Assembly: GCA_965222065.1 (NCBI GenBank)
Contig: OZ244933.1
Coordinates: forward strand, 1,912,538 to 1,976,537
DNA length: 64,000 bases
Origin: Pseudomonadales bacterium
GTDB lineage: Bacteria; Pseudomonadota; Gammaproteobacteria; Pseudomonadales; GM7GCV1
Direction of reading: 5' to 3'
This document shows positions 27,159 through 48,487 of the stretch, in pieces (the stretch's first letter is position 1; each line of letters starts with the position of its first letter). The notes under the pieces are model-generated. The model did no database searches, had not been told where the DNA came from, and worked only from the letters and a program-made list of their open reading frames with translations. The translations under genes were made by a program, and so were the position numbers.

Positions 27159-27245
27159 TGGTGCCCAGGAGAGGACTTGAACCTCCACGACCTTGCGGTC
27201 ACCAGCACCTGAAGCTGGCGCGTCTACCAATTCCGCCACCTGGGC
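27159..27245 (-). tRNA. tRNA-Leu (anticodon CAG), type II with long variable arm, CCA encoded
   Basis: Reverse complement reads GCCCAGGTGGCGGAATTGGTAGACGCGCCAGCTTCAGGTGCTGGTGACCGCAAGGTCGTGGAGGTTCAAGTCCTCTCCTGGGCACCA. Acceptor stem GCCCAGG/CCTGGGC. Anticodon stem CCAGC/GCTGG with loop TTCAGGT. T-loop GGTTCAAGTCC. Confidence 0.93.
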
Positions 27246-29413: not shown

Positions 29414-31276
29414 ATGAATAACAATAAATTTAAAGTGGCGTTGACCACTGCCATCTTCTCTTTACCTGTCGCTGCACAGGAATCAACTGCAACTCAACCC
29501 GAAGGACTGGAAGAGGTGGTCATCACTTCCAGCCGGGTCGAACAACCGCTTCGTGAAGTGGCAACCTCAGTCTCCGTGATCACCCGCGAGGACTTGGAGC
29601 TTAAGGGTTATACCTCGCTGGCCGATGTGCTCAGAACCCAGACCAGCATTGGCGTAAGTAACCAGGGGGGCACCGGGGCGGTGACCAGTCTGCGTATCCG
29701 CGGTGAAGAAGGCTACCGAACCCTGGTCATGATTGATGGGGTGGATATGTCTGACCCTACTGGAACCCAGGTTGGTCCGCTGGTCCAGAATCTGGCCAAT
29801 ACCCAGGACATTGAACGTATTGAAATCCTGCGCGGGGCACAAGGCTTCCTTTATGGTGCGGATGCTGGTGGAGTCATCAATGTGATTACCCGAAGTGGCA
29901 CGGAAGGTCTTTCCGGAAATGCGTCCGTAGAGACCGGTGCGGACGGAACCATGAATCTTGGCGGTAATGTACGCGGGGGCACGGATAACCTGGATTTTTC
30001 CCTGGCGGTGACCGATACATCCACAGATGGGTTTAATTCGCGATCGGACGACACGGTTCTGCAAGATGATGACGGTGCAGAAAATACCAGTATTCATTTT
30101 AAGGGTGGCATGAAAATCAGCCCGGACCTGTCGGCGACACTGGTTTACCGGGATATCGACGCGGTCAGTGAATATGACAGCTGCTATACCGCCACGTCGA
30201 CACTCTCCAATGACTGCCTGGGCGAAACCAGGCATGAAACTGCCAGGCTCAGCCTGGACTATGTGACCGGCGTGGTTGGCCACACATTTGCCTATGCTGT
30301 CACGGACGTCCAGCGCGATTATTTCACTGAAAATACATTAAGTTACGGCACTGAGGGTAAGACCTCCCAGGCGGAGTATGTTGGCAACCTGCAAATTTCG
30401 GATAGCCAGCAGTTGGTGTTTGGGTCGGATTACCAGAAGGATGAAATCTCGGCGACCGGCAGCGAGTCCGACCAGGACCAACTGGGCGTTTTTGCTGAGT
30501 ATCAAAGCGGGTTTAACGAGGTTGTATTTGTTACCGCGGGTCTGCGCTACGACGATAATTCGGATTTTGGCAAGCACATCAGTTACCGGGCTTCTGCTGC
30601 CTTCGTACAGGATTTGGCCTCTGGCGACAGTATTAAATACCGAGCCACCTACGGCACCGGCTTTCGGGCGCCCAGTCTCAGTGAAGTTGCCTACAACGCA
30701 GGCCCCTTTGGCAATGGTGTTTCCCTGAAAGAAGAAACTAGCAGGGGATATGACCTGGGTGTGGATTACCTGATGCAAAATGGAGCGGAAATTCAGGTGA
30801 CTTACTTCGATCAGGAAATTGATAACGAAATCTATTTTGATCTGGTGACCTTTGGCGGCTATCTGCAAACCGGGGACCGGTCGACTTCCCGGGGTGTGGA
30901 AACCGCTGTTGAGTACCCGGTCAGCTCGCAAGTAAGCCTGATTGCCAATCACACCTATAACAAGACAGAAGACAGCACAGGAGACATTCGGGTGCGTCGC
31001 CCCAGGCATTTGGCCAACCTGGGAGTAGAGTTTGCGCTGCTGGACGCGCGCCTGAATATCCTTGCCAATGTGCGTGTGGCGCGCGATGCCGTGGATAATG
31101 GATCCGTGCCGCTGGATGACTACGAAGTGATTGATCTCAGTGCCAATTATCGATTGGCCAATGGTCTGGAGGCCTTTGGCCGCATTGAAAACCTGGCCGA
31201 TGAAGACTACGAGGAGGTGACGGGTTATAACACCCGCGATCGTTCGTTTTATGCGGGTATGCGCTACCGCTTCTAG
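29414..31276 (+). CDS. btuB: TonB-dependent vitamin B12 receptor
   Basis: 620 aa with signal peptide 'FSLPVAAQE' and TonB-box/plug 'EEVVITSSRVEQPL'. 'IEILRGAQGFLYGADAGGVINVIT'. C-terminal 'AGMRYRF'. Riboswitch upstream. Confidence 0.88.
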   Translation: MNNNKFKVALTTAIFSLPVAAQESTATQPEGLEEVVITSSRVEQPLREVATSVSVITREDLELKGYTSLADVLRTQTSIGVSNQGGTGAVTSLRIRGEEGYRTLVMIDGVDMSDPTGTQVGPLVQNLANTQDIERIEILRGAQGFLYGADAGGVINVITRSGTEGLSGNASVETGADGTMNLGGNVRGGTDNLDFSLAVTDTSTDGFNSRSDDTVLQDDDGAENTSIHFKGGMKISPDLSATLVYRDIDAVSEYDSCYTATSTLSNDCLGETRHETARLSLDYVTGVVGHTFAYAVTDVQRDYFTENTLSYGTEGKTSQAEYVGNLQISDSQQLVFGSDYQKDEISATGSESDQDQLGVFAEYQSGFNEVVFVTAGLRYDDNSDFGKHISYRASAAFVQDLASGDSIKYRATYGTGFRAPSLSEVAYNAGPFGNGVSLKEETSRGYDLGVDYLMQNGAEIQVTYFDQEIDNEIYFDLVTFGGYLQTGDRSTSRGVETAVEYPVSSQVSLIANHTYNKTEDSTGDIRVRRPRHLANLGVEFALLDARLNILANVRVARDAVDNGSVPLDDYEVIDLSANYRLANGLEAFGRIENLADEDYEEVTGYNTRDRSFYAGMRYRF

Positions 31277-31430
31277 GACCAGCTAGCTAATTCGCTATGG
31301 CGTCGTTAAATTTGACCTCAGAATGCTCATTTATTTTTTATAAAATCCGCTTCTTTGATCAAATTTGCCTGGCCATCCCTTCAACGCTAACGCTGGTCTA
31401 TTCATATAGATTCTTCGGATACTGAACAGA

Positions 31431-32030
31431 ATGGATAAAAACCAAAAACACAAACAGGCCATGCAAAAACAGAAGGCCCGGGTCGATGCCCATATTGAAG
31501 CGGCGGATGTGGACCGGGGCGTTCTGGTATTGCTCACAGGAAATGGCAAGGGCAAGAGCAGTTCGGCGTTCGGGATGGTCATGCGCGCACTGGGCTATGG
31601 ACACAAGGTTGGTGTGGTGCAATTTATCAAGGGCCAGCAGCTTTCGGGTGAGGAGATCTATCTCAAGGAGCATTGCCCGCAGGTAAGTTTTTACCAGATG
31701 GGAACAGGGTTCACCTGGAACACCCAGGACCGAACGTCAGATATTGAGGCGGCCGAACGCACCTGGGCGCAGGCCGCGCCGATGCTTGGCGACCCGTCCT
31801 ATGACCTGGTGGTGCTCGACGAGATTACCTACATGATTGCCTACAAGTACCTGGACGAAAACATGATCCTGGACGCGCTTAAAAACCGTCCGGAACACCA
31901 GAGCGTGGTGGTCACCGGGCGCGGCGGTGGTTCGGCACTTCAGGAATTGGCCGATACGGTGTCGGAAGTCAGGGAAACAAAGCATGCCTTTAAGTCGGGC
32001 ATCATGGCCAGGAAGGGAGTGGATTATTAG
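31431..32030 (+). CDS. cobO: Cob(I)yrinic acid a,c-diamide adenosyltransferase
   Basis: 199 aa. P-loop '[12 protein letters not shown]', 'VVQFIKG' and 'LVVLDEITY' are typical of BtuR/CobO. Confidence 0.9.
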
Positions 32031-46737: not shown

Positions 46738-47118
46738 ATGTTAACCAATATGCTCAAGGCAAAACTTCATCTCGCAGCGGTTACCCAGGCCGAACTGCAC
46801 TACGATGGTTCCTGCGCCATCGATGAAGATCTCATCGAAGCCGCCGGACTGCGCGAGTTCGAAGCCATTGATATTTACAATGTAAATAATGGTGAGCGAT
46901 TTACCACCTACATTATTAAAGGCCAACGTGGCTCCAGAATGATCTCCATGAACGGTGCCGCTGCGCGCAAAGTGCAAGTAGGTGATCGAGTCATCATCGC
47001 CGCCTATGGCCAATACAGTGAAGAAGAGCTGAAAAGCTTTAAGCCAAAGCTGGTTTATCTGGACGAAGGTAACAATATTGTCCGGACCAATAAGTCCATC
47101 CCCGTCCAGGCCGTTTAA
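46738..47118 (+). CDS. panD: Aspartate 1-decarboxylase
   Basis: 126 aa. '[28 protein letters not shown]' contains the self-processing Gly-Ser site. 'NGERFTTY' and 'NGAAAR'. Confidence 0.95.
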
Positions 47119-47164
47119 AGCAACTGCGCTCGGCTGGGCTGCGTTAAAAGACTCACTCAAACTC

Positions 47165-47302
47165 CTCATTTACGTCTTGTAAACTCCGGGTTTTCTTTCG
47201 GCTTTTGCCTTGCCCAGCCTTTGCTCGTGATGCTTTAAATATGTTGATCTTAAATCGGGTTCTCGAACACCAATTTGCCTTGTACTGCCTTCACTCATTA
47301 CG
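47165..47302 (+). repeat. Noncoding ~137-bp repeat, copy 1
   Basis: Aligns with 47343-47481 at a 178-bp offset. The first ~95 nt differ at 3 positions; the last ~40 nt are more diverged. No ORF on either strand. Confidence 0.85.
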
Positions 47303-47342
47303 TTCTAGAAATGTAAATTAACTGAGTGTTGTTTTTAAGCTC

Positions 47343-47481
47343 CATATTTACGTCTTGTAAACTCCGGGTTTTCTTTCGGCTTTTGCCTTGCCCGGCCTTT
47401 GCTCTTGATGCCTTAAATATGTTGATCTTAAATCGGATTCGCGCTCGCCAATTTTTCCTCGTCTTGCCTGCACTCATAACG
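47343..47481 (+). repeat. Noncoding ~137-bp repeat, copy 2
   Basis: Same as copy 1. Both contain CGGCTTTTGCCTTGCC, with GG and GC spaced as in sigma-54 promoters. Confidence 0.85.
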
Positions 47482-47602
47482 CGTCAAACTTGGTGAGAGA
47501 GTAAGACTTATCCGAACGCCAAATTTGCGTTTTCAGGGTTGCACGCTGATTAAGCTGCGGGCTTAATGTGTATACAACTTTCCCTTACAAATCCAACGAT
47601 AA

Positions 47603-48487
47603 ATGAGCCTGATCGACAGTTTTATTGCCAAACACCATTTGCCCGAGAGTTTCCGTGAGGTTGCAGAACGCTTTTATTTGCCCCTTTGCCATCAGGTAAA
47701 AGAATGGCGGACGGATCAGCAAAGCCAGACGGATGATGGGCCGCTGGTGCTGGGAATTAACGGTGCCCAGGGCACGGGAAAATCGACCCTGGCGGATTTT
47801 ATTGCCGACGTTCTTACACAAGAGGACGGGGCCGAAGTGGCGGTATTGTCGATAGATGATTTTTACCTGACGAAAGAAGACCGTAATCGACTGGCGAAAG
47901 ATATACACCCTCTGCTGGCAACACGCGGGGTTCCCGGAACCCATGATTTACCCCTGGCGTTTAACACCATGAATGCCCTGAAGGCAGGTGAGTCAGGGGT
48001 ATCGCTCCCGCGATTTGCCAAGTCGGTAGATGACCGCGCCCCTGAGGATATCTGGCCAATGACAGAGGGCCCGGTCGACCTGATTATTCTGGAGGGCTGG
48101 TGTGTAGGCTCCATCCCGGAAGCCGAGGAGTCCCTGGAAGAGCCAATCAATGAACTGGAATCAGAAGAGGACCAGGCAGCCTACTGGCGTACTTATGTGA
48201 ACGATTGTCTCAAGGGCGAATACCAGGTGCTCTACGGAATGCTCGATAGGCTGATTATGCTCAAGGCGCCCAATTTTGAATCAGTGTTTAACTGGCGGCT
48301 GGAGCAGGAGCAAAAGCTTCGGGCCAAAGTGGGTCACGATGCTGAAGGCATTATGAACGAAGAGCAGATAGCCCGCTTTATCCAGCATTATGAACGGCTG
48401 ACTCGACATAACCTGGAAGTCTTGCCTGACGTGGCAGACAAGGTATTGCATCTAAAGCCTGATCACAGCATTAGAGATGATAATTAG
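47603..48487 (+). CDS. P-loop kinase (glycerate 3-kinase/uridine-kinase-like family)
   Basis: 294 aa. Walker A 'GINGAQGTGKSTLADFI', 'LSIDDFYLT', 'RGVPGTHD' and 'LIILEGWCVG' resemble the GLYK/TDA10-type kinases. Substrate not determinable. Confidence 0.55.
   Translation: MSLIDSFIAKHHLPESFREVAERFYLPLCHQVKEWRTDQQSQTDDGPLVLGINGAQGTGKSTLADFIADVLTQEDGAEVAVLSIDDFYLTKEDRNRLAKDIHPLLATRGVPGTHDLPLAFNTMNALKAGESGVSLPRFAKSVDDRAPEDIWPMTEGPVDLIILEGWCVGSIPEAEESLEEPINELESEEDQAAYWRTYVNDCLKGEYQVLYGMLDRLIMLKAPNFESVFNWRLEQEQKLRAKVGHDAEGIMNEEQIARFIQHYERLTRHNLEVLPDVADKVLHLKPDHSIRDDN

Follow-up and report, generated by a model that had tools for sequence, protein, structure and literature searches.

The DNA analyzed here is a 64,000-nucleotide (nt) stretch of the genome of an uncultured Pseudomonadales bacterium (contig OZ244933.1 of assembly GCA_965222065.1, positions 1,912,538 to 1,976,537 of the forward strand; the whole 64-kb stretch is referred to as the window), in which a tandemly repeated module occupies the spacer between two co-directional genes. 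The upstream gene is panD (46738-47118, plus strand), which encodes aspartate 1-decarboxylase and matches Pfam family PF02261 (E=4e-50), and the downstream gene (47603-48487, plus strand) encodes a P-loop kinase of the D-glycerate 3-kinase type, as its homologues are named at JGI; both assignments confirm a preliminary description of the region that had been made from the sequence alone. The spacer between them is 484 base pairs (bp) long. The preliminary description recognized in it a two-copy noncoding module with a sigma-54-like motif in each copy, and proposed that the copies are paralogous small RNA (sRNA) genes, duplicated regulatory leaders or a local repeat family. The last of these three candidates comes nearest to our results, in that the module can be traced to a conserved hairpin element with a diverged second member elsewhere in the window (31290-31384). 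According to our comparative modeling, the module is the distal two-thirds of a ~90-nt conserved, hairpin-forming intergenic element (termed E1) that has been partly duplicated, and it is not an independent gene or promoter.

Homologous loci were reached via homologues of the kinase, which share 62-84% identity with the window protein, and are designated here by L numbers. The gene order dnaB-panC-panD-spacer-kinase is conserved in these relatives, with the exception of L028, in which panD is missing; their spacers range from 319 bp (L015) through 209 bp (L009), 182-186 bp (L011, L012), 138 bp (L026) and 135 bp (L029) down to 50-95 bp (L030-L032). For the consensus fold, sequences from the window, L029, L009 and L015 were aligned from the panD stop codon onward. 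The resulting RNAalifold consensus is a long imperfect hairpin of ~90 nt (47132-47219, strand unassigned) that begins 14 nt past the panD stop codon. Its outer helix pairs GGCTGGGC (47132-47139) with GCCCAGCC (47212-47219), followed inward by a second helix (AAAAG, 47146-47150, with CTTTT, 47202-47206), a third helix (AAACTC, 47159-47164, with GGGTTT, 47188-47193) and an apical stem (TTTAC, 47169-47173, with GTAAA, 47179-47183) that is closed by the loop GTCTT. The 5’ arm of the hairpin (47132-47158) lies outside the coordinates of the preliminary description (47165-47481), and the repeat noticed there corresponds to the distal part of the structure. Each of the four homologues, folded singly, adopts this architecture as its minimum-free-energy structure, and single-sequence folds of E1 give z=-2.7 on the plus strand and z=-3.7 on the minus strand. 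Folding of the whole spacer reached no significance on either strand (z=-1.5 and -1.3), and a first consensus fold that excluded the 5’ arm returned a small hairpin only; the long structure emerged from the comparative alignment. Its outer helix covaries, as it reads GACAGCGC/GCGCTATC in L029 and GGCAA/TTGCC in L009 and L015. Over the four sequences, 92.9% of the cells of the consensus are paired, and double-sided changes occur in 8 of the 21 E1 pairs, as compared to 4.1±1.2 in column shuffles (1/500) and 0-2 when the pairing partners are slid by 1-3 columns.

A repeat search returned direct copies at 47159-47276 and 47337-47454 with a period of 178 bp and 91% identity over 118 nt, and in a gapped alignment the copies reach as far as 47302 and 47481 (47159-47302 and 47337-47481, 87.6% identity over 145 columns), so the reported duplication is real. 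The description of a nearly identical first part followed by divergence also holds: 97 of 104 positions are identical between 47159-47262 and 47337-47440, with three mismatches between 47168 and 47258, and identity falls to ~63% (25/40) over the terminal 40 nt. Blocks of 46 nt (exact) and 41 nt (near-exact) are confined to the two copies within the window, with a chance expectation of 0. The 178-bp unit begins at 47159, within the 5’ arm of the hairpin, so copy 2 contains the apical hairpin and the 3’ arm and lacks a 5’ arm of its own. This truncation explains the covariance model scores, which are 131 bits for copy 1 and 52.6 bits, a partial match, for copy 2. Each 178-bp unit contains in addition an internal sub-repeat of ~70 nt, as a result of which a ~41-nt motif occurs four times, starting at 47204, 47274, 47382 and 47453. 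Sub-repeat a1 (47204-47244) is the 3’-arm motif of E1 (TTTGCCTTGCCC...GCTC.TGATGC), and a2 (47382-47422), b1 (47274-47314) and b2 (47453-47493, listed as a feature at 47446-47492) are 93%, 71% and 61% identical to it, respectively. Copy 1 (47159-47302) thus consists of the apical hairpin, the 3’ arm a1 and the diverged 3’-arm-like motif b1, and copy 2 (47337-47481) of an apical hairpin (TTTAC, 47347-47351, with GTAAA, 47357-47361) followed by a2 and b2. Pyrimidines make up 62% of the module’s plus strand, a proportion at the 99.9th percentile of the window. A short direct repeat is common to the start of the unit (CTCATTTACG) and to its end (CTCATTACG and CTCATAACG; CTCAT(T/A)ACG), and slippage or unequal exchange could plausibly have acted on it. 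A Logan short-read contig assembled independently from this organism (L002, SRR26803925) ends inside copy 2, its position 1 corresponding to window position 47364, which is what one would expect of a tandem repeat that interrupts short-read assembly; the contig confirms copy 2 and the way it joins the kinase gene, not the two-copy arrangement.

The element is retained among the relatives in several forms. L029 carries a single a-type element, which is 75% identical to window positions 47125-47239 over 115 nt, and L009 and L015 each carry a single b-type motif in the homologous spacer that is 82-90% identical to b2. In agreement with this, an nhmmer search with the sub-repeat motif found the four window copies, one in L009 and one in L015 and no further copy in the window; b2 is the sub-repeat nearest to the relatives’ single motif (over 40 nt, 90% identical to that of L015 and 82.5% identical to that of L009). 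The b-type motif reads CAATTTTTCCTCGTCTTGCC..CTCATAAC.CGTCAAA. Only the 5’ part of the element is retained in L011 and L012, and the element is absent from the more distant relatives L028 and L030-L033, which have spacers of 50-95 bp or no panD. L015 also contains the linker GTTGTTYTTAAGCTC, which stands between the two units in the window, so the multi-unit layout is old and does not stem from a fresh duplication. Within an uncultured clade of marine gammaproteobacteria, four lineages retain E1 in this position and show compensatory changes in its base pairs. Across relatives, its distance to the panD stop codon is constant, whereas the kinase start lies at varying distances from it. Four-fold degenerate sites provide a neutral yardstick: they show 34-41% identity in panC (against L029, L009 and L015) and 31-32% in the kinase gene (L009 and L015 only), so the element, at 75-90% identity, is conserved far beyond neutral sites. 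On these sequence comparisons, E1 is clearly under purifying selection. The four-fold degenerate sites of panD are 59-70% identical to those of the relatives, which suggests that its synonymous positions are under an unusual constraint, whether from codon bias, from RNA structure or from an overlapping signal.

A second member of the family, E2, was identified in an unrelated operon of the window. A covariance model (R1) built from the four panD-linked elements only, with E2 excluded, matched the plus strand of the window at 31297-31376 with 42 bits and an E value of about 1e-7, whether the default filters were applied or switched off; a model that includes E2 in its seed alignment (R2) scores it with 81.7 bits at 31290-31384. 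The match lies in a strong long hairpin (31277-31400; z=-5.3 and -6.3 for the plus and minus strands, respectively) that begins at the first base past the stop codon of a TonB-dependent receptor gene (29414-31276, plus strand) and ends 31 nt before cobO/btuR (31431-32030, plus strand), which is followed by cobQ. A cobalamin riboswitch (RF00174, 29045-29244, plus strand, 50.5 bits) heads this cluster, which is therefore probably a B12 uptake and salvage operon. E2 has the same orientation as E1 and the same position relative to the stop codon. The two loci are ~60% alike and have in common the motifs CGTTAAA, CTCATTTA and TTTGCCTGGCC, and the members of the family are characterized by the motif TTTGCCT.GCC, a four-helix rod-like fold and a site between co-directional genes. 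When E2 is added to the alignment, double changes are seen in 13 of 26 pairs, as compared to 5.9±1.8 in shuffles (0/500). A scan with R2 of the window and of ~100 kb of the relatives’ loci revealed no further convincing member. E1 belongs to a small family that is represented at no fewer than two loci of the 64-kb window.

Our favored explanation, to which we assign a probability of roughly 0.4, is that E1 and E2 represent a small family of intergenic hairpins, placed close to stop codons, which act in cis on the sense messenger RNA (mRNA) by protecting the upstream 3’ end and/or by leaky termination. The element would be transcribed as the 3’ end or the intercistronic part of the mRNA of the upstream gene, where its hairpin would form a barrier to 3’ exonucleases and/or a leaky terminator, and expression of the upstream genes (panCD or the receptor gene) would thereby be uncoupled from that of the downstream genes (the kinase gene or cobO). 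The 178-bp tandem and the inner 70-nt sub-duplication could have arisen by slippage or unequal exchange between the short direct repeats CTCATTTACG and CTCAT(T/A)ACG; these duplications would supply extra apical hairpins and pyrimidine-rich copies of the 3’ arm, for which there is no evidence of a separate function. Three features favor the plus (sense) strand as the active one. E1 and E2 are each found directly after a stop codon and have plus-strand genes on either side; the distance to the panD stop is the one that is held constant, while the distance to the kinase start is free to vary; and in L015 and L012, clear plus-strand terminators are located downstream of the element and upstream of a promoter-like block that precedes the kinase gene. 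In the window, this block (TTGCAC-17 nt-CTTAAT, 47539-47567, plus strand) lies outside the repeat, and it is conserved at 95% identity over 21-23 nt in L011 and L015 and at 80% over 41 nt in L009. Its assignment as a pair of promoter hexamers is our inference from the sequence; a consensus scan made no call there. A Rho utilization site is a possibility that we do not claim; the plus strand is pyrimidine-rich, but C (24%) only modestly exceeds G (18%).

Several observations weigh against the cis-acting hairpin explanation. The base helix of E1 (GGCTGGGC/GCCCAGCC) is followed by TTTGCT, and the U-tract typical of an intrinsic terminator is absent. Sub-repeat b2 is 90% conserved with L015 and yet lies outside the window hairpin, which a stabilizer model does not explain. 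The structure of E1 was derived from the same four sequences that were used to test its pairing, and the comparison set consists of four orthologous lineages and one paralogue. The thermodynamics lean toward the minus strand, which would be at odds with a sense-mRNA element: minus-strand z-scores are the better ones in 4 of the 5 elements, and the consensus energy is -17.0 kcal/mol on the minus strand versus -10.5 kcal/mol on the plus strand. Counts of G-U versus A-C pairs do not discriminate between the strands.

It is also possible, though in our judgment rather doubtful, that E1 and E2 are remnants of a non-autonomous mobile palindromic element of the REPIN or MITE type that spread at the DNA level and was later immobilized, with no host function and with the tandem as slippage debris. 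Such a history would suit a long imperfect palindrome that is extragenic, occurs at two diverged loci in 64 kb and folds about equally well on both strands, as a DNA palindrome would. It would also suit the instability of the region, which among relatives contains one, two or four motif copies, partial deletions and spacers of 135-484 bp, and within which the short-read assembly L002 breaks. On the other hand, the element has been retained at orthologous sites in four lineages whose synonymous sites are near saturation, with compensatory changes and 75-90% identity, which points to selection rather than to neutral decay. No other copy is present in the window or in the ~100 kb of relatives’ loci, searches of plasmids and phages (BLAST) and of viral contigs (exact pattern) gave no match to the element, and the two loci, only ~60% alike, do not resemble an active REPIN population. 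Nor were the hallmarks of a MITE seen: neither E1 nor E2 shows a flanking direct duplication (target-site duplication), and the element is present at the orthologous site in all four lineages.

Comparison with known systems refines this picture. REPs protect upstream mRNA and partially terminate transcription, as in E. coli malE-malF and related cases. Like REPs and REPINs, E1 and E2 are extragenic, lie behind stop codons or between co-directional genes, consist of ~90-120-nt imperfect hairpins made from two inverted arms and occur as related copies in one genome. In the REP/BIME and REPIN systems, REP doublets form long hairpins (PMC3116915, PMC3337134). However, REP/REPIN families comprise many near-identical copies with GC-rich stems, whereas E1 and E2 are two loci in 64 kb, ~60% alike, with AT-rich stems and large internal loops, and the orthologous copies of E1, unlike REPs, have co-evolved in place with compensatory changes. 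ERIC/IRU elements of enterobacteria and vibrios are imperfect palindromes of ~100-130 bp that are found in transcribed intergenic regions and are orientation-specific near gene ends. Our elements can be likened to them by architecture and position, as imperfect palindromes near gene ends, although no similarity to the ERIC consensus is evident, with no direct comparison made, and the host is an uncultured marine gammaproteobacterial lineage. Intercistronic or 3’-untranslated-region stabilizer hairpins and leaky intrinsic terminators provide a third comparison: they too follow directly after the upstream stop codon within likely operons, as E2 does in the riboswitch-headed btuB-cobO-cobQ cluster, but E1 and E2 differ from them in having a longer, more interrupted stem-loop, no clear U-tract and sequence that is common to unrelated operons. 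By analogy, E1 and E2 most resemble the REP/REPIN and ERIC-type intergenic palindromes (PMC3116915, PMC3337134, PMC3184786), and we do not claim membership in either family.

The lean toward the minus strand described above raises the alternative that the active molecule is the core of a minus-strand (antisense) sRNA, or that this strand acts as single-stranded DNA, with two units antisense to the panD 3’ region. We consider it unlikely. In addition to its lower z-scores and consensus energy, the minus strand shows double changes in 17 of 27 pairs. Against these stand the absence of any promoter-like or terminator-like site on the minus strand, the location of both loci between plus-strand genes, the lack of one hairpin arm in copy 2, the failure of the G-U versus C-A counts to discriminate and the absence of an Rfam family. 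The related proposal that the two copies are paralogous sRNA genes fares no better on either strand. A consensus scan found no sigma-70-like promoter in the spacer on either strand; the only terminator-like sites are weak (47186-47201 and 47364-47379, 5 pairs including 2 G-T), in a scan whose loop limit of 8 nt places the long hairpin beyond its reach; and Rfam yielded no match in the spacer (E<=10), nor one at E1 or E2 at gathering score in scans of the E2 region and of the whole window. Copy 2, moreover, lacks the 5’ arm.

A further, more speculative alternative, to which we give a low probability, is that the element is an undescribed sequence-specific cis-regulatory RNA or protein-recognized palindrome of a streamlined, uncultured marine gammaproteobacterial clade, placed behind stop codons to set the ratio at which neighboring cistrons are expressed. 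Under this scenario, the four 3’-arm copies a1, b1, a2 and b2 might compete for the one 5’ arm behind panD, and the alternative structures that result might switch read-through into the kinase gene; binding by a trans-acting factor might account for the strong conservation of the b motif, which is unpaired.

It is very improbable that each module contains a sigma-54 promoter, or some other regulatory leader, through which the kinase gene is driven or regulated. The motif CGGCTTTTGCCTTGCC (47199-47214 and 47377-47392, plus strand), on which the promoter proposal was based, is indeed present within the 3’ arm of the hairpin, its GG-N10-GC spacing is correct in both copies, GG..GC is retained in L029 and the L029 element abuts the kinase start codon. 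Its significance as a promoter does not stand, however. When scored against the sigma-54 consensus, the site performs at chance level: it matches TGGCACG-N4-TTGCW at 7 of 12 positions, the opposite strand there also scores 7/12, and the window contains 284 GG/GC sites with at least 7/12 (approximately one per 450 bp, both strands counted), the best reaching 10/12. The likeness to sigma-54 (-24/-12) promoters is therefore confined to the GG/GC spacing, and the match is not conserved in the relatives’ homologous motifs, since GG is absent from those of L009 and L015 and from b1 and b2; we judge it to be a chance match. A duplicated kinase leader is likewise unlikely, as it is the panD stop and not the kinase start from which the element is spaced constantly, terminators intervene between element and kinase in L015 and L012, a separate conserved promoter-like block adjoins the kinase gene, and the 50-95-bp spacers of distant relatives do without the element altogether. 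In L009, L011 and L015 the -35 region of this block (TTGCRY-17 nt-CTTAAT) lies in a perfect or near-perfect palindrome, GGCTTGC-N6-GCAAGCC, that is operator-like; the palindrome is lost in the window.

The statement that the spacer has no open reading frame (ORF) on either strand proved incorrect, although none of the frames resembles a real gene. The minus strand contains ORFs of 42 amino acids (47170-47298, MSEGSTRQ...KPGVYKT, judged non-coding), 41 amino acids (47348-47473, with a GTG start, a paralogue of the former) and 59 amino acids (47298-47477), and the plus strand contains ORFs of 38 and 56 amino acids. No short ORF matched Pfam or NCBIfam, and the 42-residue peptide has no homologue among 5.8 billion predicted proteins. 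A degenerate pattern back-translated from its C-terminus, which also covers the exact DNA, gave 0 matches in genome and metagenome contigs, so the element in that form is absent from the GTDB representatives and the JGI metagenomes. The depletion of stop codons on both strands that follows from the 62% pyrimidine content of the plus strand explains why these frames are open. That the minus-strand frames encode paralogous small basic proteins is the least probable of the explanations considered: the two ORFs have near-identical C-terminal 28 residues, and L009 and L015 also contain an ATG with codons resembling MSEGK, but a Shine-Dalgarno sequence is lacking, a 1-nt indel takes the copy 2 ATG out of the frame of the common C-terminal part, the homologous element in L029 contains an in-frame stop, the frames in L009 and L015 end after 20-23 codons with unrelated tails, and the a and b sub-repeats lie in different reading frames on both strands. 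Plus-strand coding was also considered and rejected; the “FARDAL” codons common to the window and L029 show a synonymous-looking pattern (estimated p ~0.05), but the frame is not present in the b units, L009 or L015, and it has neither a start codon nor a Shine-Dalgarno sequence.

A number of other candidates were examined and set aside. By eye, the module does not resemble a CsrA sponge (GGA motifs are not enriched) or a TyrR box (the half-sites are in the wrong order), and FNR, MetJ and DnaA boxes were likewise rejected on inspection. An integron attC site, whose R''(RYYYAAC) and R'(GTTRRRY) core sites delimit an imperfect palindrome in a cassette context, was rejected as well, as GTTAAAA lies in the 5’ arm and not at the 3’ end, and the locus belongs to the core dnaB-panCD neighborhood that is conserved in relatives.

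With respect to the host, the kinases of the nearest species representatives are only ~51% identical to the window kinase, which indicates an uncultured gammaproteobacterial lineage; kinase-anchored locus searches of genome and metagenome collections returned distant relatives (<=51% identity) save for one locus. In place of the speculative sigma-54 and sRNA readings, the analysis thus offers a concrete, conserved and covarying long hairpin that lies outside Rfam and has at least one paralogue in the genome. If the family should prove numerous, it would amount to a system of the REP/ERIC type, hosted by an uncultured marine lineage whose genome measures ~2.5 Mb and whose intergenic DNA is scarce and hence likely to be functional. 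The locus also calls for caution on two technical points. Tandem partial duplications of this kind can mislead assemblers, as the short-read contig end within the repeat illustrates, and gene callers have placed kinase starts inside or upstream of the element in two relatives. The publicly called starts in L012 (3001-3108, 330 amino acids) and L029 (2001-2051, 311 amino acids) are probably too far upstream, as the N-terminal extensions cross the intergenic element or the promoter region, and the conserved protein starts at MSLID/MDFVS. Three minor observations concern neighboring features. In L028, whose kinase is 63% identical to that of the window, panC is followed directly by the kinase gene with no panD at the locus. 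A 142-residue antisense ORF (46741-47169) is open across panD and is probably an artefact. Lastly, a tRNA gene (RF00005, 54.5 bits) is located on the minus strand at 27162-27245.

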